A stretch of DNA of 64,000 nt from Minisyncoccia bacterium (GTDB taxonomy: Bacteria; Patescibacteriota; Minisyncoccia; Phycocordibacterales; UBA9973). Position 1 is the stretch's first letter. Each line of letters begins with the position of its first letter. The stretch is taken from positions 11,933 through 75,932 of the forward strand of contig JBAQNN010000003.1 in assembly GCA_049303835.1 (NCBI GenBank). Reading direction: 5' to 3'. The translations under genes were made by a program, and so were the position numbers. Below, in pieces: positions 3,983 through 45,385 of this stretch. A model generated the notes under the pieces. The model ran no database searches. It was not told the DNA's origin and worked only from the letters and a program-made list of their open reading frames with translations.

Positions 3983-4002
3983 TAAAGTAATAAAGTTAGA
4001 CC

Positions 4003-4236
4003 ATGAGAAAAATAATTCATCACATTAGAAGACAGCCTGACCATGTCAAGAAACACATACTGCATATTTTCACTGCTGTTTCTGCTGTTGTTTTAGTTTT
4101 GTTGTGGGTATATTCATTGGGAACAAATTTTACCGATACGAGCACGGAAGCCAAAGTAGATGAAGACCTAAAGCCCTTTTCGGCATTAAAAGCAAATCTG
4201 ATAGACGGATATTACAGTCTGGGAGAAACACAATAA
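4003..4236 (+). CDS. small hypothetical membrane protein
   Basis: 77-aa ORF with one hydrophobic helix directly upstream of gyrA; weak support. Confidence 0.3.
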   Translation: MRKIIHHIRRQPDHVKKHILHIFTAVSAVVLVLLWVYSLGTNFTDTSTEAKVDEDLKPFSALKANLIDGYYSLGETQ

Positions 4237-4251
4237 TTTGAGGCGTACAAT

Positions 4252-6714
4252 ATGGCAAAAAAATCAACAGAACCAACAAATGAAGAAGCGCACATAGACA
4301 CCATTCTACCGGTTGATGTCGTGGCGGAAATGAAGGAATCTTATCTGGCATATGCAATGTCAGTCATTACTTCGCGCGCCTTGCCTGACGTGAGGGACGG
4401 GTTAAAGCCTGTTCACAGAAGGATTCTTTTTGCCATGAATGAGATGGGACTCACTTCTTCTGCACGTTTCAGAAAATCGGCTGCAGTAGTCGGAGATGTG
4501 CTCGGAAAATACCACCCACACGGGGACTCGGCTGTCTATGATTCCATGGTTGGTATGGCACAAGAATTTTCCTATCGTTACCCGCTTGTTCTCGGACAAG
4601 GGAACTTCGGTTCTATTGATGGAGACAATGCGGCGGCCATGCGTTATACCGAGGCCAAGATGTCCAAGATTTCTTCGGAGTTGTTGCGCGACTTGGAAAA
4701 AGAGACGGTTGATTTTCGTCCGAACTACGATCAGACCCGAAAAGAGCCAATAGTTTTTCCTTCTTCTGTCCCAGCGTTACTTTTGAACGGTACATTAGGG
4801 ATAGCGGTCGGTATGGCTACTAACATTCCTTCGCACAATTTAGGGGAAGTATTGGATGCAACCAATTATTTAATTGAAAATGACGAAGCGACGACGGAAG
4901 ACTTGATGCAATTTGTGAAAGGTCCTGATTTTCCAACTGGCGGTATCGCTTATGGCTACAAAGATATGCTCCACGCCTATGGTTCAGGACGTGGCGGAGT
5001 GGTCTGCCGGGGAGAGGCGGAAATAGTGGAACAAAAGGATGGTAATTTTTCAATCATTATCACCTCCATTCCTTTTAGAGTAAATAAATCAAATTTGATA
5101 GTCAGCATCGCGGAGTTAGTCCAAGAGAAAAAACTTGATGGTATAAAAGCTCTCCGAGATGAATCTACCAAAGATATCAGAATTGTCATTGACTTGAAAT
5201 CAAGCGCTCATCCGGAAAAAGTTTTGAACTATATTTATAAAAATACTCAGCTTGAATCAAATTTTAATTTTAATATGGTGGCGCTAGTGGATGGTGTACC
5301 GAAAACACTTTCCCTCAAATCAATTCTTTCCTTGTTTATTGACCACCGAAAAGACGTGGTAAAGCGTAGGTCGGCTTATGATTTAAGAAAAGCTGAAGAG
5401 CGAGAGCATATCTTGCTTGGTTTAAAAAAAGCGCTTGATAAGATAGATCGGGTGATTACCGTCATTCGCGGATCCAAAGATTCTCAAATCGCAAAAGTAA
5501 ATTTGATAAAAGAATTTAAATTCTCCGATTTACAGGCCGCGGCTATTTTAGAGATGAGATTGGCAAAATTGGCTGGACTGGAACGTAAGGCTGTAGAAGA
5601 TGAGCTTGCCGAAAAACAGAAATTTATTGCAGAGATGAAAGATTTGCTTGCGAGTCCGAAGAAAATTTTGAAAACAATTGCAGGGGAGCTAAAGGATATT
5701 CGCGACAAATATGCGGATGAAAGAAGAACTAAGATAATAAAAGGTGGGGTAAAAGAAATTGCCGAAGAAGATCTGGTGCCAGAGAAAGAAACTATGTTGG
5801 TCTTGACTGCCGGTGGATATGTAAAATGTACGGATCCGGCCGAATATCATGCACAGAAGCGTGGCGGAGTCGGGGTCATAGATCTGGAAACCAAAGAAGA
5901 AGATTTCGTGACGATGCTGGTCTCTGGTTCTACTCATAGCAACCTGCTCTTCTTTACCAACCTCGGAAAAGTCTATCAAATGAAAATGTATGATATACCG
6001 GAAGGCCGCAGGGCGACCCGGGGTAAGTCTATTATGAATTTTTTGGCTTTGTCGGGAGAAGAAAAAGTGACTTCTATTCTCGCTATGCCGAAGGACTTAA
6101 GTAAAATTTCTTCTTCACTAATGTTGGTCACAAAACGAGGTACCGCCAAGAAGATGTCTTCCGAGAGTTTTAAAGATGTAAGAAGAAGTGGCATTATCGC
6201 CATTCGTTTGGACAAAGATGACCAACTCATCTCTGCATTAGAAGTAGAAAAGGGGAATGAAATTATGATCGCGACAGCGGAGGGACAGTCAATCAGGTTT
6301 AAAGAGTCCGACGTACGAGAAATGGGCAGGACCGCTGGCGGAGTGAGTGGAATTAGACTAGGCAAGAACGATGAAGTTATCGGAGTGGATGTCATCAAGA
6401 AATCTTCCGAGAAGGCTGCCTTCTTGACTATGAGTGCAAATGGTTTTGGTAAAAAGACCGATCTAAAAGAATATAAAGTTCAAAAACGTGGAGGCTCCGG
6501 AGTAAAAACAGCGAAAGTCACTTCTAAAACAGGTAAACTCATCGTGGCCAAAGTATTGGGAGGGGATGAGCAAGAATTGATTGCTATGTCTAAAAAAGGG
6601 CAAGTCATCCGCACGGCGCTCAAAGATATCTCTTCTTTGGGTCGTCAGACTCAGGGTGTGACCGTCATGCGTCTGCGTTCCGGTGATGGCATAGCCTCAC
6701 TCGCCTGTATCTAG
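4252..6714 (+). CDS. gyrA: DNA gyrase subunit A
   Basis: N-terminal catalytic region with [10 protein letters not shown] active-site Tyr context; GyrA-box-like QKRGGVG; C-terminal beta-pinwheel repeats. Confidence 0.9.
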
Positions 6715-6735
6715 TGTATAATATATAATATAACT

Positions 6736-7251
6736 ATGTTTACCGACCCATTAAAAAATTTGAAAACTCTCGGGCTAAGAGAGGATAATGTAGTAGCGGA
6801 TTTGGGCGCGGGTACTGGACACTATTCTGTAATGTTGGGAAGCTTTGTGCCAAAGGGCAAGGTGTACGCGGTTGAAGTACAAAAAGATTATCTAGAAACA
6901 ATCAAGAATAAAGTCCGAGAAGCACACCTGGGAAATGTGGAGATTATCTGGGGTAATGTAGAGAAAATTGGTGGCACCAAAATAGCAGATGCTATCCTAG
7001 ATGTGGTTGTCGCTTCAAACATATTGTTTCAAGTTGAAAATAAAGAGAATTTTCTTTTGGAGATAAAAAGAATATTAAAACCACAAGGCAGAGTATTCCT
7101 GATAGATTGGTCTGATCCGTCCGTCATCGGACTTCATAATATGATTTCAAAAGGTAAGGCAAAGGAAATGTTTGAGCAAAATGGTTTTGCCATAGAACAA
7201 GAAATTGACGCCGGGAGTCATCATTATGGTATGATATTAAGAAAGATTTAA
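6736..7251 (+). CDS. class I SAM-dependent methyltransferase
   Basis: motif I VADLGAGTGHYS and overall Rossmann MTase layout. Confidence 0.7.
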   Translation: MFTDPLKNLKTLGLREDNVVADLGAGTGHYSVMLGSFVPKGKVYAVEVQKDYLETIKNKVREAHLGNVEIIWGNVEKIGGTKIADAILDVVVASNILFQVENKENFLLEIKRILKPQGRVFLIDWSDPSVIGLHNMISKGKAKEMFEQNGFAIEQEIDAGSHHYGMILRKI

Positions 7252-7252
7252 T

Positions 7253-8548
7253 ATGAAGGTAAATTTTCAACTCATTATTTTAATCGTATTCATCGTCGCT
7301 GCTATTTTGGGTGTCCTGGTTTTTTCCGGAGCGATACCGCTCGGAGGAGACAATAATACTACCGGAGGTTTGGGAACTGTGGTTTTATGGGGAACGGTGC
7401 CCACCACAGCTCTCTCTACAGCCATAGAAGAATTCAACGAAGCCAATCCGAGTTTTGTCGTGCAATACGTACAAAAATCTGCCGAAACATTTGACCAAGA
7501 TTTATTGGAAGCATTGGCAGCAGGTCAAGGGCCAGATATGTTTTTCCTTCCGGACAATTTAGTTTTTCACTACGCCAATAAAATTTTTACTATCCCATAT
7601 GCGAGTTATCCGCTCGCTACCTTTAAGAATGTTTTTGCCGGGGCTGGGGAAGTTTTTTTGAGCAGCAAAGGAGTCATGGCTTTCCCAATGTCTATTGATC
7701 CGCTCATAATGTATTACAACAGAAGTATCTTGGATGCGAATGGCATCGTTTATCCGCCAACGACCTGGGATGAACTCTCCGGTATGGTGCCTAGTCTAAC
7801 CAAAAAAGATGAAGCAAATAAAATAATAAAAAGTACGGTGGCCCTAGGACATTATTCAAACGTAGTTCATTCCAAAGACATTTTATCAGCGCTTTTTATT
7901 CAAGCAGGGAACCCTATTATCACCGAGAAGGAAGGGGTGTATAGTTCGGTCTTGGGTTCACCGATAGGGAACTATAATCTCCCATCTATTTTAAAATTCT
8001 ACACGGATTTTGCAGACCCAAACAATCCTGTGTATTCCTGGAACAAATCTTTTGCTGATTCGGATGCTGTTTTTTCTAAAGAAGATTTGGCCTTTTATTT
8101 TGGTTATGCGTCCGAGCTCCAATCTTTGATAAATAGAAACCCAAATCAGAATTTCTTTGTGGCAGGTATGCCTCAGATTAAAAATGCGACTTTTAAATCT
8201 ACCGGTGCCAGAGTCACAGGTATAGCCATCTCTTCTTTCTCCAAAAATTTTAACACTGCGTTCACTGCCGCCAGCTTGATGGCGACATCTGATTTTGCTT
8301 ACAAGTTTGCCGTGGCGACGGGAGTAGCTCCGGCGCGTAGAGACTTGCTTGCTTTAAAACCTACTGATGCGTATTCTCCGACCTTTTACAGCTCTGCATT
8401 GTATGCTCGGGGTTGGCTTGATCCATCTTCTAGAGATACAGACAACATCTGGGGTGGGATGATCAATGGAGTGCTTTCAGGCAATATGTCTGCTTCGGAT
8501 GCGGTCAAAGATGCAAGCTCAAAGTTACAGCTTTTATTATTCAAATAA
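7253..8548 (+). CDS. membrane-anchored extracellular solute-binding protein (SBP family 1-like), orphan
   Basis: N-terminal TM helix; GQGPDMFF...YYNRSILDANGIVYPPTTWDEL resembles sugar ABC substrate-binding proteins; no permease or ATPase adjacent. Confidence 0.45.
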   Translation: MKVNFQLIILIVFIVAAILGVLVFSGAIPLGGDNNTTGGLGTVVLWGTVPTTALSTAIEEFNEANPSFVVQYVQKSAETFDQDLLEALAAGQGPDMFFLPDNLVFHYANKIFTIPYASYPLATFKNVFAGAGEVFLSSKGVMAFPMSIDPLIMYYNRSILDANGIVYPPTTWDELSGMVPSLTKKDEANKIIKSTVALGHYSNVVHSKDILSALFIQAGNPIITEKEGVYSSVLGSPIGNYNLPSILKFYTDFADPNNPVYSWNKSFADSDAVFSKEDLAFYFGYASELQSLINRNPNQNFFVAGMPQIKNATFKSTGARVTGIAISSFSKNFNTAFTAASLMATSDFAYKFAVATGVAPARRDLLALKPTDAYSPTFYSSALYARGWLDPSSRDTDNIWGGMINGVLSGNMSASDAVKDASSKLQLLLFK

Positions 8549-8552
8549 TTTT

Positions 8553-8930
8553 ATGAGAAAAACAACAAAATTTTTTATAAACATTGCAGTACTTTTAATT
8601 TTAATTATCCCAGCTATCTCTTTGGCCCAAGAAGACTCTAGATTGGTGACGTGCACGGAAGATTGTGACTGGACTGATTTGATGAATCTCGTAAATACTA
8701 TAATTAATTTTATTCTTTATAAAATGGCTATACCTATAGCAGCTATTATGTTTGCTTATGCCGGATTCAAGATGGTCACTGCTGGTGGGGAAGCTGCTCA
8801 TGCGCGAACAGAAGCAAAAGAGATTTTCACCAATACTGTGATAGGGCTGGTTTTGGCTGCCGCTGCTTGGCTTATTATTAAAACAATATTATCAATTTTG
8901 GGATATCAAGGCGCTTGGATTGGTTTTTAA
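8553..8930 (+). CDS. VirB2/TrbC-like pilin-family mini-protein (paralog 1); ATG start chosen inside the track ORF
   Basis: signal peptide ending SLA-QED, then two hydrophobic helices separated by a short charged loop (AGGEAAHARTEAKE). Confidence 0.5.
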   Translation: MRKTTKFFINIAVLLILIIPAISLAQEDSRLVTCTEDCDWTDLMNLVNTIINFILYKMAIPIAAIMFAYAGFKMVTAGGEAAHARTEAKEIFTNTVIGLVLAAAAWLIIKTILSILGYQGAWIGF

Positions 8931-8951
8931 TATAAAGTATAATTAAAATAT

Positions 8952-9332
8952 ATGAATTTTATTAAGAAAAGTTGGTGGAAATTAATTTTGGCGTTTTATG
9001 TTTTAGTTGTTCCAATTGCTAGTCTTGTTGCAGATGTTGATGGAACACCGTCTGATCAGTCTGGTAAAATTATCAATCCTCTAGAAAACAGTGGAATAAA
9101 TTCAATTCCAGCTCTCATAGAGAAAGTTTTGGAAGGGGTGTTGAAAATCGGCATACCGATAGTAGCCCTAGCTATCATTTATTCCGGCTTTCTTTTTGTT
9201 TTCGCCAGGGGGAATTCTGAAAAATTAGGCAAGGCAAAAGATTCACTTCTCTATACGATTATCGGCGCGGCGATACTTCTCGGGTCGTGGGCTATTGCCA
9301 AGATGATATCAAGTACGGTGCTCGCATTATAA
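8952..9332 (+). CDS. VirB2/TrbC-like pilin-family mini-protein (paralog 2)
   Basis: signal peptide plus two TM helices flanking ARGNSEKLGKAKDS loop. Confidence 0.5.
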   Translation: MNFIKKSWWKLILAFYVLVVPIASLVADVDGTPSDQSGKIINPLENSGINSIPALIEKVLEGVLKIGIPIVALAIIYSGFLFVFARGNSEKLGKAKDSLLYTIIGAAILLGSWAIAKMISSTVLAL

Positions 9333-9347
9333 ATTTAAAAATTAATT

Positions 9348-9941
9348 ATGGAAAAAATAGGGGATTTATTAACTGGGATTCAACAACTTTTAAATACGAT
9401 TATTCCAATTTTGATTTTGGTTGGGGTGGTTTATTTCGTATGGGGCGTGGTGAAATTTATGATTGCCGATGGGGAAGAAGCCAAAACCAAAGGGAAAGAT
9501 CAGATTATCTATGGACTTATAGGTTTTACTGTCATCATCGGTTTGTGGGGGTTGGTAAACATCGTCGTCAATTCTCTCGGTTTTGGTGCTGGTCAATTAA
9601 ATGCGCCGACGGTGACCAACCTTGGGGTTCAGGCCACTGGGTCAGCTTGTCGGATGGGTGAAAATTTTCAGGGTGTTTTGGGTTATTTCACTTGTATAAT
9701 TAATGATTCGGTTATACCTTTTATGTTCGCTATCGCCATAGCGATGTTTATCTGGGGAGCAGTAAAGTTTTTCATCATCAATGCCGACGAGGAAGCGAAG
9801 AGAGAGCAGGGTAAACAGTTTATGATCTGGGGTATTATTGCCTTGGCTGTCATGATGTCTGTATGGGGACTCGTAGGAATACTGACGAGCACTTTCGGAG
9901 AAAGTGGTAGTGTCCTTCCGCAGGTGACACCCCCAAAGTAG
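9348..9941 (+). CDS. VirB2/TrbC-like protein with internally duplicated (two-module) architecture
   Basis: two tandem copies of the module VYFVWGVVKFMIADGEEAKTKGKDQIIYGLIGFTVIIGLWGLVN / MFIWGAVKFFIINADEEAKREQGKQFMIWGIIALAVMMSVWGLVG. Confidence 0.5.
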   Translation: MEKIGDLLTGIQQLLNTIIPILILVGVVYFVWGVVKFMIADGEEAKTKGKDQIIYGLIGFTVIIGLWGLVNIVVNSLGFGAGQLNAPTVTNLGVQATGSACRMGENFQGVLGYFTCIINDSVIPFMFAIAIAMFIWGAVKFFIINADEEAKREQGKQFMIWGIIALAVMMSVWGLVGILTSTFGESGSVLPQVTPPK

Positions 9942-10055
9942 TATTTGCTTCCGTTTTTAGGAGAGGGTATAATTAAACAATATTATTAGTATATTATAAG
10001 GTCGCTTTTTCCGCCAAAGGCGGATAAAATTATTAGAGGGTTAGTAGTATAAATT

Positions 10056-10472
10056 ATGAAAAATAAATTAATGGTTTTGTCTGGTTTGGGTTTGAGTTTG
10101 CTTGCTCCGGTAGCCACATTCGCGCAAGGAGTTTCCACTAGTGGTGCTTCTTCCACCAGTTGTGATTTCGGTGCAAATGGAACACTTTTTGGAATTTTGT
10201 GTAGAGTGGGACAATTCTTAAACTCTGTTGTTCCTGTTTTGATAGCGCTTGCAGTCGTTTACTTTGTGTGGGGAGTCGTTTCTTTTGTTATTGCTAGCGA
10301 TGAAGAAGCAAAGACAACCGGTAGAAATCGCATTATCTTTGGTATCATCGGTTTGGCTGTCATCATCGGTATGTGGGGACTGGTAAACCTTTTGAGAAAT
10401 ACATTCGGTCTTAACAACACCACCAACATCACCCTTCCTACTGTGCCTGTAGTTATTCCTGGACAGAACTAG
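10056..10472 (+). CDS. VirB2/TrbC-like pilin-family mini-protein (paralog 4)
   Basis: signal peptide ...ATFAQG; module VYFVWGVVSFVIASDEEAKTTGRNRIIFGIIGLAVIIGMWGLVN. Confidence 0.5.
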   Translation: MKNKLMVLSGLGLSLLAPVATFAQGVSTSGASSTSCDFGANGTLFGILCRVGQFLNSVVPVLIALAVVYFVWGVVSFVIASDEEAKTTGRNRIIFGIIGLAVIIGMWGLVNLLRNTFGLNNTTNITLPTVPVVIPGQN

Positions 10473-10483
10473 AAATTGTTTAT

Positions 10484-10819
10484 ATGGATTTATTTTCTAC
10501 AAAAATTGCGTACGCAGCGAGCTCTAGTCTAAATGAGTTTATTGCGAACGTAGATAATATGATTATAAATCCACTTATCTCTTTTCTTTTTGCTTTGGCG
10601 ATAGCTTTCTTTCTGTATGGTGTCCTTGAATTCGTGATGAATCAAGAGAATGAGGAGGCAAAAACAAAAGGGAAGAGTCATATGATCTGGGGAGTTATCG
10701 GCATAACTATCATGATGAGTGTGTGGGGTATCTTGGGTATCGTGCTCAATACCCTAAACATAAACGAATCTGAAATAAATCCAAAAGAGGGGACAGTAAA
10801 CTTGACTCCACTTGATTGA
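10484..10819 (+). CDS. VirB2/TrbC-like pilin-family mini-protein (paralog 5)
   Basis: module FLYGVLEFVMNQENEEAKTKGKSHMIWGVIGITIMMSVWGILG. Confidence 0.5.
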   Translation: MDLFSTKIAYAASSSLNEFIANVDNMIINPLISFLFALAIAFFLYGVLEFVMNQENEEAKTKGKSHMIWGVIGITIMMSVWGILGIVLNTLNINESEINPKEGTVNLTPLD

Positions 10820-10854
10820 TAATTTAAAAATATAAACTTAGGAGAAATTAAAAA

Positions 10855-10884
10855 GGGCGACGTTCATGAAGAACGTCGCCCTTG
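10855..10884 (+). terminator. strong hairpin after pilin cluster (weak U-tail)
   Basis: gggcgacgttc-atgaa-gaacgtcgccc perfect 11-bp stem. Confidence 0.45.
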
Positions 10885-10942
10885 TGCGTTGGGCCAGTCG
10901 CACGATTTGGGCCCATAATCACCTCCTAACGAAGAACAGTTG

Positions 10943-11404
10943 TTACAGGTTCACCTTTCTATAAACCTGCACCCGCACATGCGGGTTTTTTTTATCCGGG
11001 GAGTCAAAGAATGTCTCCCCGGATCGCATTTGCGATGGAGCGCGGAAGTCTCCCTCCCCGGGGTAGGAGACTGAGTCTCTAACCCCTGAAAAGGTTATCC
11101 GTAGCGGGCGCCCCTCCGTCCGAATCTTGAAACTCCACGCAATCTGCGTGCTGCATGGAGTGTAGCACTCGTGCATGAGCACAAGCGCCTCGGTCGGTTG
11201 ATGGTAGTAGGTTGACGTCGGTTTGTTGTCCGGCGGCTTCGTCTCTTCCTCTTCTTTCTCACTCCACCAGGAAGAGACTGCGGATGTTCCGAGCTTTACC
11301 CCAGAGTAGATAAGGAAGCCGGTGAAGAGAAAAACTACCGTTACGATAGGGTAAAAGAGAAACCGAGCAGATTTGAAGCGGCGCATGGGCTTACCCCTTA
11401 TCAC
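10943..11404 (-). CDS. hypothetical membrane protein, operon partner of the SPFH gene (high-GC island)
   Basis: 153-aa ORF with N-terminal TM helix, overlaps the SPFH stop by 14 nt; GC about 57%; no recognisable NfeD motif; coding status uncertain. Confidence 0.3.
   Translation of the reverse strand: MIRGKPMRRFKSARFLFYPIVTVVFLFTGFLIYSGVKLGTSAVSSWWSEKEEEETKPPDNKPTSTYYHQPTEALVLMHECYTPCSTQIAWSFKIRTEGRPLRITFSGVRDSVSYPGEGDFRAPSQMRSGETFFDSPDKKNPHVRVQVYRKVNL
10970..10993 (+). terminator. rho-independent terminator (hairpin plus T8), second of a tandem pair
   Basis: cccgc-acat-gcggg followed by tttttttt; overlaps the predicted C-terminus of the minus-strand ORF 10943..11404. Confidence 0.55.
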
Positions 11405-12416
11405 TGACGGCCGTTACGATGCCACCACCAATGACATTTGGTTTGGCAACCTTAATCGCCTCCGCCATCGCGATAGCCGCGCCGTTTGGCTGAGATGCCC
11501 AAGCAGCGAGTTCCGCTCTGATCCCTTCCGCTCTTTCCTTGGAGGCGTTTTTCTCGCCAATGCCACGTTCCTTGGCAGCTTCGGCATCGAGCTTGGCGAT
11601 TGCAACCGCTTTTGTTGCTCGCGCTTCTTCTCCCTCGACGAGGTCAAAAGAGACGAAACGCGCATCGACGATTTCGACACCGAACTTGTTGTAGAGACTC
11701 TCAGAGTTTGTCCGATCCCCTAGAGCCTTGAGTGTCTCGACAAGCGGGCTTGCCTTTGAGCCCTTCTGCTCCAACCGAAGTTCATCGACATCACGAGACG
11801 CTGCGTATTGCCGAAACGCTCCAGCAACTGCCGCGGTGGTCTGGCCTTCCCAGCCACCAGCGAAGAAGAATGCCTTCTGCGGGTTGACGACTTGTGCTGT
11901 GAATACGAGTATGGCGTCGACGGTGAGGTTGCCAGCGGTCTCCGCTGACTCTATACCAACTGCCATGTTGTAACGGAAGAAGATGGAGGGTCCAGGACGA
12001 GTCTTCGGGACGAGACCCCACTCACCAGTGGGTTTCTTGTCCTTCTCGATCATCTCCCACTTGTCATACTTCACCTCGCGGTAAAGCAGATAGCGGAAGA
12101 ATCCGACCCGGGCGACACCTAGGTTGTATAGGTATCCTTCTCCCTCTCCCTTTTTCTCTCCATCGGGGAGAGATTCGAACTCGCCGTTTTTGTAGTTGTA
12201 GAGAGAGACCGATTCCAGAACGTCTGCGAATGGTCCTTTGGGATCACCGCGGACGACGATGTACATCTCTCCGGGAGGGGGGAGGGTCCGAAACGGACTC
12301 CACCATGTATCCTTTTTCCCGAGCGTTACGATTCCTCTCGGAATGAGGAACTCCACGGTGAAGATGATTAGTCCTACTGTCAAGATTGTGAAGAGGACGA
12401 TCCATACTATGTTCAT
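11391..12416 (-). CDS. SPFH / band-7 (stomatin-prohibitin-flotillin) domain protein, in a high-GC island
   Basis: N-terminal TM, VDAILVFTAQVVNPQKA SPFH core, Ala/Glu-rich C-terminal coiled coil; G/C-rich codon usage unlike neighbours. Confidence 0.75.
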   Translation of the reverse strand: MNIVWIVLFTILTVGLIIFTVEFLIPRGIVTLGKKDTWWSPFRTLPPPGEMYIVVRGDPKGPFADVLESVSLYNYKNGEFESLPDGEKKGEGEGYLYNLGVARVGFFRYLLYREVKYDKWEMIEKDKKPTGEWGLVPKTRPGPSIFFRYNMAVGIESAETAGNLTVDAILVFTAQVVNPQKAFFFAGGWEGQTTAAVAGAFRQYAASRDVDELRLEQKGSKASPLVETLKALGDRTNSESLYNKFGVEIVDARFVSFDLVEGEEARATKAVAIAKLDAEAAKERGIGEKNASKERAEGIRAELAAWASQPNGAAIAMAEAIKVAKPNVIGGGIVTAVSDKG

Positions 12417-12623
12417 ACTTCCTCCTGCGCCGGTGGCGCTGTGTTAAGCGCCCGCGGGCGCGGGTTTTGGAAAGGGAATAAGGTCGTAAAATCCTTTCGG
12501 ATTATTTTGTTTTCAGAGGGCTAGAGACTACTAAAATAGTATCACAAAATATCAAAAAAGTCAATCCCAAACGAAAGCCTTCGGCTTCGTACGGGACAGG
12601 CCTCTTTAGCATTGCGTAAACAA

Positions 12624-12656
12624 CAAAAAAATCCCCTTTATGGGGATTTTTTTGTT
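12624..12656. terminator. bidirectional rho-independent terminator
   Basis: aaaaaaa-tcccc-ttta-tgggga-ttttttt. Confidence 0.7.
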
Positions 12657-12662
12657 TAAATA

Positions 12663-13373
12663 TTAAGCGTGTTTCATCGGAGCTTGCTCGTAATTTTCTT
12701 TTGCGCCGAAAATTCTTCTGGCTAAAATGACTATAACAAGGATCAAGATAGCAAAGAGTATCCACTGTACCAATCCGGAAGGCAAGAAACTACCAGATCC
12801 GAAAATTGCATTTGAAGCGAGGTTGCTGTAACTGTCTGCTTCGTTTCCAGTTTCAACTGTTTCTACATATGTATCCGGAGAAATAGTGTTGTTGTTTGTT
12901 TTTGCAGAAGTAGAAGCGACAGGACTATTTACAGTAAAGAAGACACCATTGGAAGATCCTCCGCCAGGAGCTCCATTGTAAACAGTGATAAAGAATCCAC
13001 CATTATTTTTGTATGCAGATGTATCATTTCCAGTTATCTGAACCAATAGGTGAGAGTCGTCTATGAAAGTAGTAGGACGGCTAGAATTATTTATCTTAGC
13101 GACGGAGCCAGGGACAAAACCGCTACCGGTGATGGTGATAGTCTTTGTTCCCACACCCAAATTGATAGATTTTGGGGTAATAGAATCTATGGCAGGCTTC
13201 GGGTTGGTCGTATCTTTTTGGACCGGGGTATTGAAATTATAATCATTGTAATAAGTATAATTTCTACCACCTTCAGCGTTAGCACTGTTAAAAGGTATAA
13301 TTAACAAGCTAAATGCCAAAATAGATAGTATTTTCAAGCCGAAAAATATTGATTTGTTGTTTAATTTACTCAT
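12663..13373 (-). CDS. cell-surface protein with signal peptide, IPT/TIG-like Ig-fold domain and C-terminal TM anchor
   Basis: ATG start at 13373 preferred over the TTG at 13409; SITPKSINLGVGTKTITITGSGFVPGSVAKI pattern; C-terminal hydrophobic helix plus basic tail. Confidence 0.5.
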   Translation of the reverse strand: MSKLNNKSIFFGLKILSILAFSLLIIPFNSANAEGGRNYTYYNDYNFNTPVQKDTTNPKPAIDSITPKSINLGVGTKTITITGSGFVPGSVAKINNSSRPTTFIDDSHLLVQITGNDTSAYKNNGGFFITVYNGAPGGGSSNGVFFTVNSPVASTSAKTNNNTISPDTYVETVETGNEADSYSNLASNAIFGSGSFLPSGLVQWILFAILILVIVILARRIFGAKENYEQAPMKHA

Positions 13374-13476
13374 ACTATATAGTATAGCATAAAGTAAAAT
13401 AAAAGTCAAGAGGATAGATTATTGAGAGTAAAAAGCTTGTTATTTAGTCATTTTTTACATATAATCTATTTTGTTT

Positions 13477-13558
13477 GCCCGAGTGGCGGAACTGGTATAC
13501 GCGCACGACTTAAAATCGTGTCTCGCAAGGGATGTGGGTTCGATTCCCACCTCGGGCA
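13477..13558 (+). tRNA. tRNA-Leu(TAA), type II with long variable arm
   Basis: acceptor gcccgag/ctcgggc, anticodon loop acTTAAaa, T-loop GGTTCGATTCC; no encoded CCA. Confidence 0.8.
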
Positions 13559-13588
13559 CTGGGTAGAATTGTTTTTTAAAATTTATTT

Positions 13589-13661
13589 GCGCCCATAACT
13601 CAGCTGGTAGAGTAGCTCCCTCTTAAGGAGAATGTCGGAGGTTCGATCCCTCCTGGGCGCA
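13589..13661 (+). tRNA. tRNA-Lys(CTT)
   Basis: 73-nt cloverleaf, acceptor gcgccca/tgggcgc, anticodon loop ctCTTaa, T-loop GGTTCGATCC. Confidence 0.75.
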
Positions 13662-13696
13662 CAGTGCGAAATTATAAAGCACTAATTGTTTCTTGT

Positions 13697-13778
13697 GGGC
13701 GAGTGGCGGAATTGGTATACGCGTTAGTCTTAGGAACTAATGTCGCAAGACTTGAGGGTTCGAGTCCCTCCTCGCCCA
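13697..13778 (+). tRNA. tRNA-Leu(TAG), type II
   Basis: acceptor gggcgag/ctcgccc, anticodon loop ctTAGga, long variable arm, T-loop GGTTCGAGTCC. Confidence 0.8.
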
Positions 13779-13785
13779 CACGTAC

Positions 13786-13857
13786 GGCCTGGTAGCCAAG
13801 TGGTAAGGCATTCCTCTGCAAAAGGAATATGCGGCGGTTCAATTCCGCCCCAGGCCT
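13786..13857 (+). tRNA. tRNA-Cys(GCA)
   Basis: acceptor ggcctgg/ccaggcc, anticodon loop ctGCAaa, T-loop GGTTCAATTCC. Confidence 0.8.
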
Positions 13858-13869
13858 CAGATTTATTTA

Positions 13870-38653: not shown

Positions 38654-40555
38654 ATGAGTAAAATAATAGGCATAGATTTGGGTACAACAAATTCGGCAGT
38701 GGCCATCATTGAAGGTGGCGCTCCAAAAATTGTGGAAAATGTGGAGGGGAATCGTACAACTCCTTCAGTCGTAGCCATAGCGAAAAATAGCGATAGGATT
38801 GTCGGTCTTTTAGGTAAAAGACAAGCTGTAACAAATCCTGAAAATACTATTTATGGTATCAAGCGTTTTATGGGGCACAACTTTGACGATCCAGAAGTGC
38901 AAAAAGATTTAAAGAATGCTTCTTTCAAAATACAAAAATCTACCAATGGAGGAGTAGAAATAAAAATTGGAGATAAGTGGATGCGTCCGGAAGAAATTTC
39001 CGCGATGATTTTGTCAAAAATAAAATCCGACGTGGAAGCGAAGCTCGGAGAAAAAATTACTGAAGCGGTCATTACCGTGCCGGCATATTTCAATGATGCG
39101 CAAAGAAAGGCGACAAAGGATGCGGGACAAATTGCGGGCTTGGATGTAAAACGTATCATCAATGAACCGACGGCAGCTGCTCTTGCTTATGGGTTTAATA
39201 AAAAGAAAAATGAAAAAATTGTAGTGTACGATTTTGGTGGGGGAACATTTGATGTGTCTGTGCTCGAGATAGGTGATGATGTCATTGAAGTAAAGTCTAC
39301 CGACGGAGACAGCCATCTGGGTGGACGTGATATTGACCACAAGATTATCAATTGGATAGCGGAAGAGTTCAAAAAAACTTCCGGAGTGGATGTCCGTGGA
39401 GACAAGCTTGCCTTGCAACGTTTAGATGAAGCGGCAGAAAAAGCAAAAATAGAACTTTCTACTGCCATTGAGAGTGAAATAAACATTCCTTTCATTACTT
39501 CTACTACAGAGGGTCCTCAACACCTACTTCTTAAAATGACTCGTGCTCAACTTGAATCAATTGCCGAAGAATATATAAATAGATCTATAGAAATTACTAA
39601 ACGAGCAATGGCTGCTTCTGGTTTCAAGATTGAAGATATGAATGAAATAATAATGGTTGGTGGACAAACTAGAATGCCAAAAATTGTGGAAGAAGTGAAG
39701 AAAGTTTTTGGTAAGACCCCAAATCTTTCCATTAATCCCGATGAAGTTGTGGCTCTCGGAGCTGCCGTACAGGCAGGAGTTTTAGCAGGAGATGTTCGTG
39801 ATGTTCTACTCTTGGACGTGATTCCTTTATCTCTAGGCATTGAGACCTTAGGCGGAGTAGCTACAAAATTAATTGAACGCAATACCACTATCCCTTCAAA
39901 TAAATCTCAAGTATTTTCTACAGCTGCCGATAATCAAACTTCAGTAGAAATACATATAGTACAAGGAGAACGTCCTATGGCCTCTGATAATAAATCTTTG
40001 GGACGATTTATTTTAGATGGTATTCCACCAGCTCCTCGCGGGATGCCACAGGTTGAAGTTGCGTTTGATGTGGATGTGAATGGCATTTTGAATGTGACGG
40101 CAAAAGATAAAGCTTCTGGTAAAACTCAGTCTATCAGGATTGAAGCAAGTTCCGGCTTAAAAGAAGAAGATATTAAGAAAATGCAAGCGGATGCGGAACT
40201 GCATGCGGAAGAAGATAAGAAGAAAAAAGAAGTGGTAGATGTGAAAAACACCGCGGAAATGAGTATTTACACAGCGGAAAAAGCGCTAAAAGATAATGAA
40301 GCAAAAATCCCGGCCGAATTAAAAGACAGTGTAAATACGAAAATTACCGCCTTGCGCGGAGTGAAAGACGGCACCGATGGCGAAGCGATTAAAAAAGCCA
40401 CTGAAGAACTTTCTGTGGAAATGTCCAAAATTGGCGAAGCGATAAGTAAAGCCGGAGCTGAAACTCCACCGACAACTCCACCAGAAGAACAAAATGAAGA
40501 AGTAAAGGAAGCAGAAGTTAAAGAAGAAAAAGAAGGAGAGGAGCCAAAAGCGTAA
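38654..40555 (+). CDS. dnaK: molecular chaperone DnaK (Hsp70)
   Basis: [18 protein letters not shown], full NBD plus SBD, 633 aa. Confidence 0.95.
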
Positions 40556-40616: not shown

Positions 40617-42632
40617 ATGGAACTTCCAGAGATACCTATAAATAAAGATGTCACCTATCTCGGGCTCACTACTTTTCGCGATAAAAATCAGCTTTTTGGT
40701 ATTAAGCGCAAAGACAGACGTCAGCATGTTTATATTTTAGGAAAGTCTGGTACCGGTAAATCTGTGCTGATGTTTAACATGATTATCCAAAACATTCAGA
40801 ACGGTGAAGGAGTCTGTATGGTTGACCCGCACGGGGAAAACGTAGAAGCTGTCCTGTCCGCCATCCCTCCACACCGCATGAAAGATGTGATCTATTTCAA
40901 TCCCGCCGACGCGGATTACCATATTGGTTTTAATGTGTTGGAACTAGTAGACCCACAATACAAACATTTGGTAGCTTCGGGCCTCATGGGTATCTTTACG
41001 AAAATCTGGGCGAACGCTTGGAGTGCTCGTATGGAATATATTTTGAACAATACTATCCTTGCTCTTCTAGATACTCCAGGGACAACTCTCTTGGGTATCC
41101 CCAGAATGCTCGTGGACAAAGATTATCGTCAAAAAATAATTTCTAATTTGAAAGACCCTGTCATCAAAGCTTTTTGGGTGCATGAATATGAGGCTTGGCA
41201 AGACAAGTTCCGAAACGAAGCTATTGCGCCAATTCAAAATAAAGTTGGACAATTTCTCTCTACTTCTATTATCCGAAATGTCGTAGGTCAATCCAAGAGT
41301 ACCATCAATATTTTTGACATGATGAACGATGGAAAGATTTTTTTGGTGAATGTTTCCAAAGGACGCATCGGTGAAGACAACTCCGGTCTCTTGGGGGGCA
41401 TGATCATTACAAAAATTCAGCTGGCTGCTATGGAACGCGTACGTATTCCCGAGGATCACCGAAGAGACTTTTACCTTTATGTGGATGAATTTCAAAATTT
41501 TGTGACGGATGCTTTTGCCGGAATATTGTCTGAAGCGCGTAAATACAGGTTAAATCTAACTGTGGCGCACCAATATACCGCTCAACTGGTGGTAGACAAA
41601 AGCTCTGCTGTGCGTGACGCAGTGTTTGGCAACGTGGGCACGATGATAATTTTCCGGGTTGGTTCCGATGATGCGGATTTCTTGGAGAAAGAATTTGACC
41701 CGGAATTTACCCCACAAGACATTGTGAATTTGCCGAACTACAAAATTTACCTAAAGCTGATGATAGATGGGGTGACTTCCAGACCGTTTTCCGCCAAAAC
41801 CTTACCTCAAATGGTAAAGTCCGGAGATAAAAAAATAGAAGAGGAGGTTATAAAAACTTCCCGTGAATTATACTGTAGACCGAGAGAAGTAGTAGAACGA
41901 GAAATAAATGAGTGGAGTGAGATGTCTCTGGGGGATCATGAATATTCTTCTTCGGGTAGCGGAGGAAACTTAGAAAAATTTCCAATTACTTGTTCACTTT
42001 GTGGGCTTCAAAAAACCGTGCCTTTCAAACCAGAACCAGGGAGACCGGCATATTGTAAAGAATGTATAGCTAAAATAAAATCAGGAGAAGTAAAAGTAGA
42101 AAAGAAAGGCAAAGATCAAATTGCCTATGATGAATCAAAGTTTTATAAACCCTTGGCAGACCTAGGGATAGAATTTGAACAGAAAGATAGGGGTGGAGCT
42201 GAGCCTGCTCACCAATTGGCGGGTGTAGAAGAAAATAAATTTATTTCTCCGACACAAAGACCAACAACACCCCCTCCAACAAATAAGCCAAGTGTCTTTG
42301 GAGCTATCAAAAAAGTATTTACCAAACCAAAACCTATCCGTTCGGCAAGCGGGGACAATCTGGGGCTCAAGGAGGTTTTAAATAAATCTTTACCAACGCC
42401 AGTATCTTTAAATTCTTTAAAAAACAATATACAGGAAACTAAAAAATCCATCCATTCTAACGTAGATCGTGCTGCTACCAGCGAAGACATGAATAAGTTA
42501 AAAGATTTGATTAAAGAAAAGACTGAACAAAAAAAAGAAGAAAATTATCAAAATAAAAACAAAACTTCGCCCGTTGACGGGTTACCGACGAGAGAAGTGC
42601 CGGAAGACGTTCTAAAGAAAGTTTTGGAATAA
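40617..42632 (+). CDS. soluble FtsK/HerA-superfamily P-loop ATPase of the T4SS coupling-protein (VirD4/TrwB/TraD) or VirB4-like clade, with C-terminal CxxC-x17-CxxC zinc ribbon and disordered tail
   Basis: Walker A ILGKSGTGKS; VDPHGE; Walker B YLYVDEFQNF; ARKYRLNLTVAHQYTAQL and FGNVGTMIIFRVGS blocks typical of TrwB/VirD4; no N-terminal TM; C-term CSLCG...CKEC. Confidence 0.55.
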   Translation: MELPEIPINKDVTYLGLTTFRDKNQLFGIKRKDRRQHVYILGKSGTGKSVLMFNMIIQNIQNGEGVCMVDPHGENVEAVLSAIPPHRMKDVIYFNPADADYHIGFNVLELVDPQYKHLVASGLMGIFTKIWANAWSARMEYILNNTILALLDTPGTTLLGIPRMLVDKDYRQKIISNLKDPVIKAFWVHEYEAWQDKFRNEAIAPIQNKVGQFLSTSIIRNVVGQSKSTINIFDMMNDGKIFLVNVSKGRIGEDNSGLLGGMIITKIQLAAMERVRIPEDHRRDFYLYVDEFQNFVTDAFAGILSEARKYRLNLTVAHQYTAQLVVDKSSAVRDAVFGNVGTMIIFRVGSDDADFLEKEFDPEFTPQDIVNLPNYKIYLKLMIDGVTSRPFSAKTLPQMVKSGDKKIEEEVIKTSRELYCRPREVVEREINEWSEMSLGDHEYSSSGSGGNLEKFPITCSLCGLQKTVPFKPEPGRPAYCKECIAKIKSGEVKVEKKGKDQIAYDESKFYKPLADLGIEFEQKDRGGAEPAHQLAGVEENKFISPTQRPTTPPPTNKPSVFGAIKKVFTKPKPIRSASGDNLGLKEVLNKSLPTPVSLNSLKNNIQETKKSIHSNVDRAATSEDMNKLKDLIKEKTEQKKEENYQNKNKTSPVDGLPTREVPEDVLKKVLE

Positions 42633-42637
42633 TAGAT

Positions 42638-44098
42638 ATGTCTAAACCAAATAGGGTACAAATAATAAAATACGCTCCGCCTCCACCAGAGCTACCTGTT
42701 TTCGGAAAAGTGAAACCAGAAGAGGTTTCTTTTATTGGACGTACAAATTATGTAGCTTCTTTGGAAGAGAAAAAATTTATTTTTGGCATCAAACGTGTAG
42801 ATCGCCGAAGACATTTATATATCATCGGAAAGTCTGGTGTGGGCAAAAGTAAACTACTTGAGTTGTTGATGCGTCAAGATATAGTCTATGGCCACGGTAT
42901 TTGTTTGATTGATCCACATGGAGATGAGATAGACGCTATCTTAAACTTTATACCAAAAGAACGTATTCACGATGTCTGCATTATTGACCCTACAGACTTA
43001 GATTTTCCTGCTTCTTTTAATCCACTTGCCAACGTTGATCCTTTGTTCAAGTTTCAGTTGACACAGGGTTTGATAGAAGTTTTTCAAAAACAATTCGGAG
43101 CGAACTGGACTCCTCGCTTGGAGCATGTCTTTCGTTTTACTTGTCTGGCACTCTTGGACTATCCACATGCCACGATGCGGGGCATGATTTCAATGTTGAC
43201 GGACAGAAATTACAGGCAGAAAGTAGTGGAATATATCACAGATGATATGGTAAAAAGATTCTTTGCTATTGAATTTGCCGATTGGTCCGAGAAATTTGAT
43301 ACGGATGCCATCATCCCGCTCGTAAACAAACTAGGGCAGTTTCTATCCGATCCACTTCTCCGAAACATCTTCGGACAGAAGCAAAATAAAATAGACATCA
43401 GTGAGTTGATGAACCAACAAAAAATTATTTTGATAAACCTTTCCAAGGGCCGTCTCGGAGAAGAAAACTCCTCTTTCCTGGGTTCAATGTTCTTGACGAA
43501 AATAAAACAAGCGGGGATGGAGCGTGCAGCTATCCCAGAAAAAGATCGCAAAGATTTTTATCTATATGTAGATGAGTTTCAGAATGTCGTCACCCAAACT
43601 TTTGAAAATATTTTATCAGAGGCGAGAAAGTATGCCTTGAATTTGACCATTGCCCATCAGTATGTCGGACAGATTTTGCCGAAAGTACATCAAGCAGTAT
43701 TGGGTAATTGTGGGAGTGTCATTTCTTTTCGTATTGGTGGAGAAGATGCCGTTAAAATGAAACCCGAGTTTGCGCCGGTTTTTGACGTGAAAGATATGAT
43801 TAATCTGGCAGTGGCAGAATTTTTTGTCAAAATGACTATTGATGGAGAATCTTATGACCCATTTTCGGCGGAAACACTCCGAGTGCTTCTACCGACCCAC
43901 CCTTCTTATAGAGAAGAAATAATTGAAGCTTCTCGTGAAAAATATTCAATACCAAAGGATGATGCTGCAAAACTTATCGCAGAAGAGGAAGCGACAATCA
44001 TCAGGAGTGCAGAAGAAAAAGCGATAATTGAAGGGAAAATAGCAAAGGAAGGAAATTCAGAAAATAAAACTTCACAAGAGGCTGAGCCTATGATATAG
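42638..44098 (+). CDS. second soluble VirD4/TrwB/VirB4-like P-loop ATPase (paralog of the upstream gene)
   Basis: FGIKRVDRRRHLYIIGKSGVGKS, IDPHGDE, YLYVDEFQNV, ARKYALNLTIAHQY; about 45% identity by eye to the upstream gene. Confidence 0.55.
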   Translation: MSKPNRVQIIKYAPPPPELPVFGKVKPEEVSFIGRTNYVASLEEKKFIFGIKRVDRRRHLYIIGKSGVGKSKLLELLMRQDIVYGHGICLIDPHGDEIDAILNFIPKERIHDVCIIDPTDLDFPASFNPLANVDPLFKFQLTQGLIEVFQKQFGANWTPRLEHVFRFTCLALLDYPHATMRGMISMLTDRNYRQKVVEYITDDMVKRFFAIEFADWSEKFDTDAIIPLVNKLGQFLSDPLLRNIFGQKQNKIDISELMNQQKIILINLSKGRLGEENSSFLGSMFLTKIKQAGMERAAIPEKDRKDFYLYVDEFQNVVTQTFENILSEARKYALNLTIAHQYVGQILPKVHQAVLGNCGSVISFRIGGEDAVKMKPEFAPVFDVKDMINLAVAEFFVKMTIDGESYDPFSAETLRVLLPTHPSYREEIIEASREKYSIPKDDAAKLIAEEEATIIRSAEEKAIIEGKIAKEGNSENKTSQEAEPMI

Positions 44099-44113: not shown

Positions 44114-44770
44114 ATGAAAAAAGACTACTATGAAATTTTAGGAGTTAGTAAAAATGCCTCCAAGGAGGAAATAAAAAAAGCTTTTTATAAGTTGGCACAC
44201 AAACATCATCCTGATAAAAAAGGAGGTGATGAAGCTACTTTTAAACAGGCCAATGAAGCCTACCAAGTACTTTCTGATGACTCTAAACGTTCTCAATACG
44301 ATCAGTTTGGAGCTGGCTTTGAAAATATGGGGCAACAACAAGGTGGATACGGGCAAGGCTTTGGTGGCTTTGAAGGATTTGATTTTTCCGGTTTTCAAAA
44401 CGGAAGCGCGGAGTTTGATTTTGGGAATTTAAACGACATTTTCAGTGATTTCTTTGGTGGAGGAATGGGCGGTTTCCGTTCTACCCGAACTCCACGTGGT
44501 AGAAATATGCAAACGGAAATACAGATTTCGGTAGTAGATTCAATATTAGGAGTAGAGAAAAAAATGATATTGGGTGGGCGCAAAGAAATAACAATCAAAA
44601 TTCCCGCCGGTATTCAAAATGGGCAGACTCTCAAAATGACCGGTTATGGAGAAGAAATAAAAAATGGCAAACCGGGGGATTTATTTATAAAAGTAAGTAT
44701 AAAATTTCCCCATAAAATTTCTCAAAAGGCTCGGGATCTTTTAGAACAGCTCAAAAAAGAGGGGATTTAG
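44114..44770 (+). CDS. J-domain co-chaperone (DnaJ-like, lacks zinc-finger CxxCxGxG domain)
   Basis: J domain with HPD (DYYEILGV...HPDK), G/F-rich region, one C-terminal beta-sandwich domain; 218 aa. Confidence 0.7.
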
Positions 44771-44773
44771 ACT

Positions 44774-45385
44774 ATGTTTCCTGAACAGATTATCTTTGTT
44801 GGAGTACTTATTAACCTAGTTGGGTTAATTTGGTATATAAAAAATATAATTTCCGGTAGCACCAAACCGAATTTAATTTCCTGGTTTATTTGGAGTTTGG
44901 CTCCTTTTATAGGGGTGTTTTTCCAGATTAAAGCGGGGGCAGGATTTTCTACCTTGCCGATATTTATGGCAGGATTTACTTCACTCGTGGTCATAACAAT
45001 TTCGGTTTTGAAGAAAAATGGATATTGGGAAATAAATATTTTTGATGTTGTTTGTGGAATAATTTCTTTATTTGCTTTGATTTTATATGTTTTTACCCAC
45101 AATTTAAGCGTATCAATATTATTCGCCATTATTAGTGACGCCCTGGCTTATATCCCAACCATTAGGAAATCATGGAGTTTCCCGGAAACTGAAACAGGCC
45201 TGATGTATATCACCGGTATCGTGAGCAACCTTATAGGCTTACTTACGATAAACACGTGGACCTTCCCAATTTATTCTTTTGGAGTTTATATTATATTATT
45301 TAATGCGATGGTAGTATTTTCAATCTATCGCAAGAAAATATTAAATATGCTATATTTCAGGAATGACAAACAGAATGAAAAATAA
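44774..45385 (+). CDS. hypothetical polytopic membrane protein (about 6 TM)
   Basis: hydropathy only. Confidence 0.35.
   Translation: MFPEQIIFVGVLINLVGLIWYIKNIISGSTKPNLISWFIWSLAPFIGVFFQIKAGAGFSTLPIFMAGFTSLVVITISVLKKNGYWEINIFDVVCGIISLFALILYVFTHNLSVSILFAIISDALAYIPTIRKSWSFPETETGLMYITGIVSNLIGLLTINTWTFPIYSFGVYIILFNAMVVFSIYRKKILNMLYFRNDKQNEK

Follow-up and report, generated by a model that had tools for sequence, protein, structure and literature searches.

The window, as we call the 64,000-nucleotide stretch of DNA analyzed here, comes from a metagenome-assembled genome (MAG) of the class Minisyncoccia within the phylum Minisyncoccota, the former candidate phyla radiation (CPR) or Patescibacteria, and the lineage is a 'Nomurabacteria'-type Paceibacteria. 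It contains five adjacent genes, p1 to p5 (Table 1), which together encode six pilin modules with 22-57% pairwise identity and which, in our assessment, probably encode VirB2-family subunits of a type IV secretion system (T4SS). An earlier inspection of the DNA, hereafter the sequence-only reading, had reported five consecutive small open reading frames (ORFs) at 8553-10819. These are true genes, and they lie far beyond what chance would give because all five pass the gathering score of the family PF18895, the array is kept in about 76 species-level genomes, and the ratio of nonsynonymous to synonymous substitution rates (dN/dS) is below 1 for each of the genes. The gaps between successive genes are 21, 15, 114 and 11 nt, and p3 is 100% identical to an NCBI protein titled 'MAG: pilin [Minisyncoccia bacterium]'. 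The remaining genes of the window are those of an ordinary chromosome, including Mur ligase, S1 protein, GyrA, IF-2, ClpB, BipA, ribosomal proteins, RpoA, DnaK/DnaJ/GrpE, DnaB and several tRNA synthetases.

Table 1. Coordinates of the pilin array and of other features of the window.
Feature	Position	Strand	Length (aa)	Description
SBP_bac_1 solute-binding-fold protein	7253-8548	+		PF01547, 62.2 bits; ends 4 nt before p1
p1	8553-8930	+	125	Pilin of subtype A; predicted signal peptide, then an N-terminal stub with Cys-x3-Cys, a two-helix hairpin and the C-terminus ...LSILGYQGAWIGF
p2	8952-9332	+	126	Pilin of subtype A; predicted signal peptide, an N-terminal region that varies and a hairpin under strong conservation
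p3	9348-9941	+	197	Fused di-pilin, subtype B; four predicted helices, no predicted signal peptide in the lineage of the window
p3 module 1, type D1	9348-9581	+		Closest paralog p4 (57%); own ortholog group with 54% mean identity
p3 inter-module linker	9582-9665	+		Model confidence (pLDDT) below 50 at residues 82-96; P87 invariant and C101 nearly so in alignments
p3 module 2, type D2	9666-9941	+		Most conserved module, 58% mean ortholog identity; motifs DEEAKREQGKQFMIWG and VLPQVxPP
p4	10056-10472	+	138	Pilin subtype B; predicted signal peptide, Cys pair, hairpin
p5	10484-10819	+	111	Pilin subtype B; short conserved N-terminus, no predicted signal peptide
GC-rich palindromic hairpin, 13 bp	10853-10883			34 nt past the p5 stop; left edge of the high-GC block; likely terminator
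orf153	10943-11404	-		C-terminal part 55% identical to a same-site gene in locus L001, likewise GC-rich
orf341	11391-12416	-		Present in 2 of 61 loci
First VirD4/TraD-like ATPase	40617-42632	+	671	Follows dnaK (38654-40555)
Second VirD4/TraD-like ATPase	42638-44098	+	486	Adjacent to the first; followed by dnaJ (44114-44770)

The family assignment is carried by two curated profile hidden Markov models (HMMs). With PF18895 (T4SS_pilin; gathering threshold 26.6 bits), all five proteins score above threshold, at 39.2 bits for p1, 30.8 for p2, 72.2 for p3 over two stretches, 31.4 for p4 and 35.0 for p5. With PF04956 (TrbC/VirB2; gathering threshold 27.9 bits), p2 is above threshold at 29.8 bits and p1 slightly under it at 25.1 bits (E=2e-5), while p3, p4 and p5 give no match at E<=1. 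The core claim of the sequence-only reading, a tandem array of VirB2/TrbC-like T4SS pilins, is thus upheld by PF18895 for the whole array and by PF04956 for p2. Indeed, all 18 p2 orthologs that were aligned match both families (PF04956 at E<=0.01). The tie of p3, p4 and p5 to VirB2 runs only through PF18895 and through their similarity to p1 and p2. Among NCBIfam models, the top match of p2 to p5 is NF045849, which describes a pilin-like protein of mycoplasma integrative and conjugative elements (ICEs) and has a cutoff of 40 bits; p3 reaches 60.4 bits by the sum of its two modules, and the other four proteins score 13.6-29.7.

The topology was judged by hydropathy, with signal peptides recognized by inspection for AxA-type sites and orthologs compared by counting hydrophobic segments. 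Each module has two hydrophobic segments of about 25 residues with a short charged loop between them, and p3 has two such pairs, so that the two-helix hairpin described from the sequence is seen in all five proteins. For p3, the AlphaFold2 model based on 113 homologs (mean predicted local distance difference test, pLDDT, of 68; it was used instead of an earlier run on 13 sequences with pLDDT 60) has four long helices, at residues 2-39, 43-76, 107-144 and 150-182, that form two hairpins joined by a disordered linker at 77-106. By these criteria, the signal peptide that had been ascribed to each protein appears to be present in p1, p2 and p4, which start with a basic n-region, a hydrophobic core (h-region) and an AxA-type site, but not in p3, which begins straight at its first module, or in p5, whose N-terminus is the short conserved MDLFSTKIAYA. 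Two hydrophobic segments are likewise found in 69 of 76 p5 orthologs. For p3, 51 of 76 orthologs have five segments and 16 have four as in the window, and the extra segment of the former is consistent with a signal peptide. Paired cysteines occur in the N-terminal regions of p1, p3 module 2 and p4, and the p3 of the lineage of the window lacks the first Cys pair. The proteins fall into two subtypes. The EEAK(T/R)xGK loop and the WG(L/I)V motif of the second transmembrane helix (TM2), which had been read as common to the array, are confined to p4, p5 and the two modules of p3 (subtype B), whereas p1 and p2 (subtype A) have their own TM2 and the loops GGEAAHARTEAK and RGNSEKLGKAK.

The double module of p3 had been recognized from the sequence, and rightly so, but its interpretation as a tandem duplication within the gene is ruled out. 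The two modules are 38% identical to each other, whereas identity to p4 is 57% for module 1 and 51% for module 2, each module has its own ortholog group, and a more distant locus, L080, encodes a stand-alone D2 gene (9474-9773, 99 aa) and no D1, as judged by group-specific HMMs. The divergence of the modules, the closeness of module 1 to p4, the separate ortholog groups and the free D2 of L080 argue that p3 arose by an ancient fusion of two distinct paralog types. In the linker, what looks like the C-terminal tail of a pilin runs into a mature N-terminus with its Cys pair, and no signal peptide lies between the two. The same HMMs identify a D1-D1-D2 triple in locus L002, an additional free D1 gene in L046 and an additional free D2 gene in L052. 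Fused two-module pilins did not turn up in PMC10633639, PMC12102498, PMC12857230 or the wider literature searched.

The array is not a peculiarity of this MAG. In a scan for relatives with one genome per species, 144 genomes encode a relative of p3, and 79 loci were kept, nearly all of them titled Nomurabacteria or Paceibacterota with a few others, such as 'uncultured Candidatus Saccharibacteria', one Bacteroidales and one Shapirobacteria. When all ORFs of these loci were searched with a module HMM, the 1-1-2-1-1 layout was found to recur in about 76 species-level genomes with little variation, in the order of two (sometimes three) single pilins, the two-module pilin, a pilin of about 130 aa and a pilin of about 108 aa. 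Over the module columns, identity between the same position in different genomes is 44-59% and between different positions is 16-48%, and the best match of each window module lies at its own position in the majority of the other loci, for example in 74 of 75 for D2 and in 70 of 75 for p5. Same-position identity above between-position identity, together with these positional best matches, argues for an old and stable set, and we interpret the array as six ancient, position-specific module types. At E<=0.001, an exhaustive profile search returned 10,947 representatives of clusters formed at 50% identity, and from the matches listed the full two-module architecture is present in roughly 40-50 clusters. 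As a separate observation, many independent assemblies (loci L002, L004, L008, L010, L017, L019, L026, L028, L037, L049, L050 and L076) break off 19-29 kb upstream of the gene for the double pilin, which points to a recurrent assembly-breaking element such as repetitive DNA, an rRNA operon or hypervariable sequence; locus L086 extends to within 215 bases of such a contig end without revealing the element.

The first pilin of the array (p1 type) has a length of 200-617 aa in 12 of the approximately 76 loci, where N-terminal extensions enlarge it, and it measures 321-617 aa in L080, L065, L074, L066, L041, L053, L073 and L075. A Pfam scan of six enlarged orthologs found fn3, TSP1 or DUF5018 domains in four of them. 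Specifically, the first pilin of L080 (7160-9013) carries fibronectin type III (fn3) repeats, those of L065 (8213-9523) and L074 (1857-3098) carry thrombospondin type 1 repeats (TSP_1) above threshold, and that of L066 (8303-9445) matches DUF5018 slightly under threshold (36.5 versus 38.2 bits); L041 and L053 have Ser/Thr/Pro-rich spacers with no domain recognized by Pfam. The extra domains are placed after the signal peptide and ahead of the '...GLVPC...C(D/G)F...' motif and the hairpin, a placement that fits a protein with its N-terminus outside (N-out) and a function on the cell surface. These features mark p1 as the variable 'display' subunit, of which the p1 of the window is the minimal form. 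It is unusual for a bacterial pilin scaffold to bear a TSP1 repeat.

We now put forward a mechanism for the array that we regard as probable. We propose that the five genes encode non-redundant VirB2-family subunits of a patescibacterial T4SS, each module of which would enter the cytoplasmic membrane as a hairpin of helices whose two ends face outward (N-out/C-out) and whose charged loop faces inward. The p1, p2 and p4 proteins would use a cleaved Sec signal peptide, and p3 and p5 would presumably insert directly. A VirB4-driven machine encoded elsewhere in the genome would then extract the modules from the membrane and build them into a surface filament or stalk that touches the host cell. 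Because the six types are ancient, position-specific and not interchangeable, they would most likely co-assemble or occupy different places, such as shaft, base and tip. In such an assembly p3 would hard-wire a 1:1 pair of two types, and the p1 type would face outward as a carrier, with adhesion domains on display in some of the relatives. What the analysis demonstrates is family membership, the topology pattern, conservation, orthology and the selection regime; T4SS dependence in this genome, filament formation, co-assembly and the insertion route are inferred.

Several observations weigh against this mechanism. No VirB4, VirB6, VirB3 or VirB8 family member was recognized in the scan of window ORFs, which covered most of the larger ones and reached 53 kb downstream, and no T4SS core gene was found in the approximately 20 kb upstream of the array in L086 and L087, where ddl, Mur ligases, secA and Nramp are located; over these regions the array does not lie near a T4SS locus (virB4, virB6). 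The sole T4SS-like genes of the window encode two ATPases with weak similarity to VirD4/TraD and lie about 30 kb away, and the existence of a virB4 gene in this genome is presumed from its frequency of about 80% in the literature. The p3 and p5 proteins appear to lack the signal peptide typical of VirB2. When PDB sequences were searched with profiles of the p3 and p2 orthologs, the outcome was nothing or spurious segments of G-protein-coupled receptors, and fold and sequence searches against solved structures gave generic helical hairpins only and no pilin. We know of no member of PF18895 for which a pilus has been seen.

A more specific version of the mechanism is that all six types depend on one another in a single heteromeric T4SS filament or stalk, in contrast to the homopolymeric pili of known conjugation systems. 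In it, p3 would fix the D1:D2 ratio at 1:1, p1 would lie at the tip or side and display adhesion domains, and the membrane-anchored solute-binding protein (SBP), if co-transcribed with the array, would capture host-derived molecules at this structure. We offer this only tentatively and think it somewhat unlikely. If it were true, CPR bacteria of the Nomurabacteria type would have an organelle dedicated to host contact and uptake.

The SBP gene is also the basis for a reading that needs no T4SS at all. It is preceded by a methyltransferase gene (1-nt gap) and gyrA, and it lies directly upstream of the array in all 75 loci with room to see it, as does gyrA farther upstream in 67 of 67. The candidate explanation that the SBP is an incidental neighbor was rejected on the basis of this invariant position, and the adjacency suggests a functional link, which we state with reserve. 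The protein has an N-terminal hydrophobic anchor or signal, and the sequence-only reading had called it an orphan solute-binding lipoprotein. The solute-binding fold holds and no permease gene is adjacent, but the translation contains zero cysteines, so it cannot be lipidated at a lipobox and is not a lipoprotein. The array might accordingly be thought of as T4SS-independent pilin-fold hairpins that form with the SBP an envelope or uptake module, for example a scaffold holding the substrate-capturing protein at the host interface. The 4-nt distance of the SBP gene from p1 in the window, its adjacency to the array in every such locus, the lack of recognizable T4SS core genes from -20 to +53 kb and the apparently missing signal peptides of p3 and p5 speak for it. 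Adjacency alone is no proof of a functional link, however, because the whole region is syntenic in the clade, as the position of gyrA shows. Moreover, elsewhere in the Patescibacteria a pilin gene is near virB4 in 1,135 of 1,948 assemblies (PMC12102498), and pilins in other Patescibacteria are essential together with the T4SS (PMC12102498, PMC10633639). We judge this reading to be unlikely.

The selection regime of the array bears on a further alternative. From the divergence of the N-terminal regions, the sequence-only reading had suggested diversifying selection on a surface-exposed part. We estimated dN/dS by the Nei-Gojobori method against a close relative, L083 (GyrA 97% identical, dS about 0.4-1.4), and found values of 0.02-0.035 for S1, LactB3, GyrA, the methyltransferase and the SBP, 0.05 for p3, 0.04 for p4 and 0.05 for p5, so that p3 to p5 are as constrained as housekeeping genes (GyrA, S1 protein). 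The values for p1, the fastest-evolving member of the array, and for p2 are 0.38 and 0.26. The extra change in both is concentrated in the signal peptide and the N-terminal mature part, the hairpin core of p2 being at 0.07, and the same parts of p1 and p2 are conserved against a second relative, L084, so that their fast evolution appears in one of two comparisons. Region by region, the ratio (omega) does not exceed 1 where dS can be estimated; it is saturated in a few small sub-regions, and at dS of 0.4-1.5 the comparison has little power. Diversifying selection was therefore not detected. The profile of DNA identity is a mosaic, which fits allele replacement by recombination. In a separate observation, 60 bases in the 5' part of p5 (10497-10556) are 100% identical to L083, with the first 24 codons of p5 free of synonymous change, while the flanking segments are 82-95% identical and dS in the p5 core is about 0.6. 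This could reflect a recombination tract or a nucleotide-level constraint, and it is of borderline significance.

These data allow us to weigh the possibility that the array is a cassette for antigenic or host-range variation, as has been proposed for the amplified trwL (VirB2) genes of Bartonella Trw, in which the copies would be equivalent and diversified on their exposed part. Such a cassette was proposed for patescibacterial arrays (PMC12102498), and it could account for p1 and p2 evolving 5-10 times faster than p3 to p5, with most of the change in the signal peptide and the N-terminal part of the mature protein, and for the adhesion domains swapped between lineages in p1-type orthologs. 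Yet each position has its own ortholog group in about 76 species, the GyrA-like constraint on p3 to p5, omega values that never exceed 1 where estimable and the conservation of p1 and p2 against L084 all argue otherwise, and the paralogs are old, with no recent duplication at the DNA level (TM2 copies are 62-73% identical). A recent amplification as in Trw, with lineage-specific and very similar copies, is not what is found here, where ortholog groups span the species and DNA repeats reach only those values. We consider a variation cassette quite unlikely. Finally, that the genes encode pore-forming or toxin-type small membrane proteins (a holin, a bacteriocin or a TsaT-like toxin) is effectively refuted, as it has in its favor only insignificant matches among NCBIfam holin, bacteriocin and toxin models (phiLC3 holin at E=0.14 for p1, TsaT at E=0.022-0.82), and against it the significant curated pilin-family matches, the lack of any PHROG family match to the array proteins at E<=0.01, a context with no lysis or immunity gene and a conserved chromosomal position amid housekeeping genes; neither of the outcomes named beforehand as contrary to a pilin identity, the absence of a pilin HMM match together with a topology that lacks the two-helix hairpin, or a match to a holin or bacteriocin family, occurred.

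Some features in and around the array deserve description in their own right. An element GTTTTTA...GTATAATTAAA is present twice, at 8923-8962 before p2 and at 9953-9992 in the 114-nt gap before p4, with 73% identity between the copies; it holds a perfect TATAAT and may be an internal promoter. A scan of 4000-13500 for sigma-70 promoters and terminators showed no enrichment over shuffled sequence (24 versus 17.7 expected and 10 versus 9.9, respectively), and the hairpin past the p5 stop alone stands out in that scan. The high-GC island that had been noted downstream of the array is real, with 51-58% GC at about 10850-12500 compared with 36-42% around it in a genome of about 39% GC. Of its two genes, orf153 has a homolog downstream of the array in 13 of 61 loci, and orf341 has only 49 homologs, mostly about 55% identical, in Zambryskibacteria and other Patescibacteria. 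One of these carries Band_7 (PF01145), but the idea that orf341 corresponds to the Band_7 protein at the same place in L001 was rejected, as direct comparison showed no similarity (E=0.31). The block, of 1.6 kb, is a variable insertion, probably a small cassette exchanged among CPR bacteria, and it lies outside the pilin system. Beyond it, a gene at 12663-13409 (-) encodes a protein of 248 aa that matches the choice-of-anchor Z repeat domain (NF058597, 77 bits) and has a membrane anchor at its C-terminus, and it is kept downstream of the array in 60 of 61 related loci. Four tRNA genes (Leu-taa, Lys-ctt, Leu-tag and Cys-gca) follow at 13477-13858 (+), about 1 kb past the GC-rich insertion.

Farther downstream are the two ATPases mentioned above, the first with TrwB_AAD_bind, DUF87 and TraG-D_C domains and a CxxC-x17-CxxC zinc finger, and the second with DUF87. 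Both are probably homologs of type IV coupling proteins (T4CPs) located far from virB4, as reported for Patescibacteria, which have about two T4CP homologs per genome, rarely near virB4 (PMC12102498). Their location inside a chaperone operon is an odd placement. At 45363-47221 (+), adjoining genes encode N-carbamoylputrescine amidase-like and agmatine deiminase-like proteins, both under their equivalog cutoffs, a possible ATP-yielding pathway from agmatine to putrescine that would be reminiscent of the arginine deiminase theme of Saccharibacteria.

Tandem arrays of 2-11 divergent VirB2-like pilins in Patescibacteria have already been published (Wang 2023; Quinonero-Coronel 2025) and are highlighted in a 2025 review of T4SSs (PMC12857230). 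In S. epibionticum, a series of predicted pilins within the T4SS cluster is essential (PMC10633639), and Quinonero-Coronel et al. 2025 searched 3,035 genomes with PF04956 and PF18895 and found 441 arrays of 2-11 genes with a mean identity of 25%, with VirB4 in 2,417 of the 3,035 assemblies (PMC12102498). The array described here corresponds to the definition used in that study, at least two tandem genes positive with a pilin HMM and of low mutual identity. It shares with the published arrays (S. epibionticum ML1, the 'Sec-secreted array' of N. lyticus TM7x, and the 441 arrays) the same two families, tandem small genes of low identity, a monoderm CPR host and a chromosomal location. It differs from them in not being beside virB4, in being strictly preceded by an orphan SBP gene, in its covalently fused two-module pilin and in its position-by-position orthology across species; the published arrays are reported as most abundant in Microgenomatia and Saccharimonadia, whereas this one is in Paceibacteria.

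The comparison with better-known pilins is similarly mixed. Agrobacterium VirB2, RP4 TrbC and F TraA have a signal peptide, as predicted for p1, p2 and p4, followed, as here, by two hydrophobic helices with a short charged loop. Each of them, however, is encoded by one gene of a diderm T4SS operon and builds a homopolymeric pilus, in contrast to the five genes here, and p3 to p5 do not match their family PF04956. Some conjugative pilins are cyclized (TrbC, VirB2) or N-acetylated (TraA), and no processing enzymes or neighboring T4SS genes were seen in the window. The trwL genes of Bartonella Trw are, as here, sequence-variable VirB2 paralogs side by side, and the copies are thought to tune host binding (PMC12857230, PMC12102498). 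They are regarded as interchangeable antigenic variants, whereas the paralogs of the window are old, are each conserved in their own right and for the most part evolve under strong purifying selection. The mycoplasma ICE pilin-like protein (NF045849; Mbov_0395 / MMCAP2_0565) is likewise a two-helix conjugal transfer protein of a monoderm, but p3 alone passes its cutoff, by way of two modules, and there is no ICE context in the window.

It should be noted that this locus is a well-conserved further example of a described phenomenon and leaves the category of the system unchanged. What is new are the details: a conserved fused di-pilin, stable positional orthology, a p1 type that bears additional domains, an invariant SBP neighbor and remoteness from virB4. 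Because such arrays can lie far from virB4, surveys centered on virB4 neighborhoods will miss them. In the single Patescibacterium tested by genetics, epibiotic life requires the T4SS together with its series of pilins. The age of the pilin paralogs and the conservation of each one favor distinct structural roles over a set of interchangeable variants, and any model of these systems is constrained by the covalent linkage of two paralog types and by the scaffolding of adhesion domains on one paralog type in relatives.

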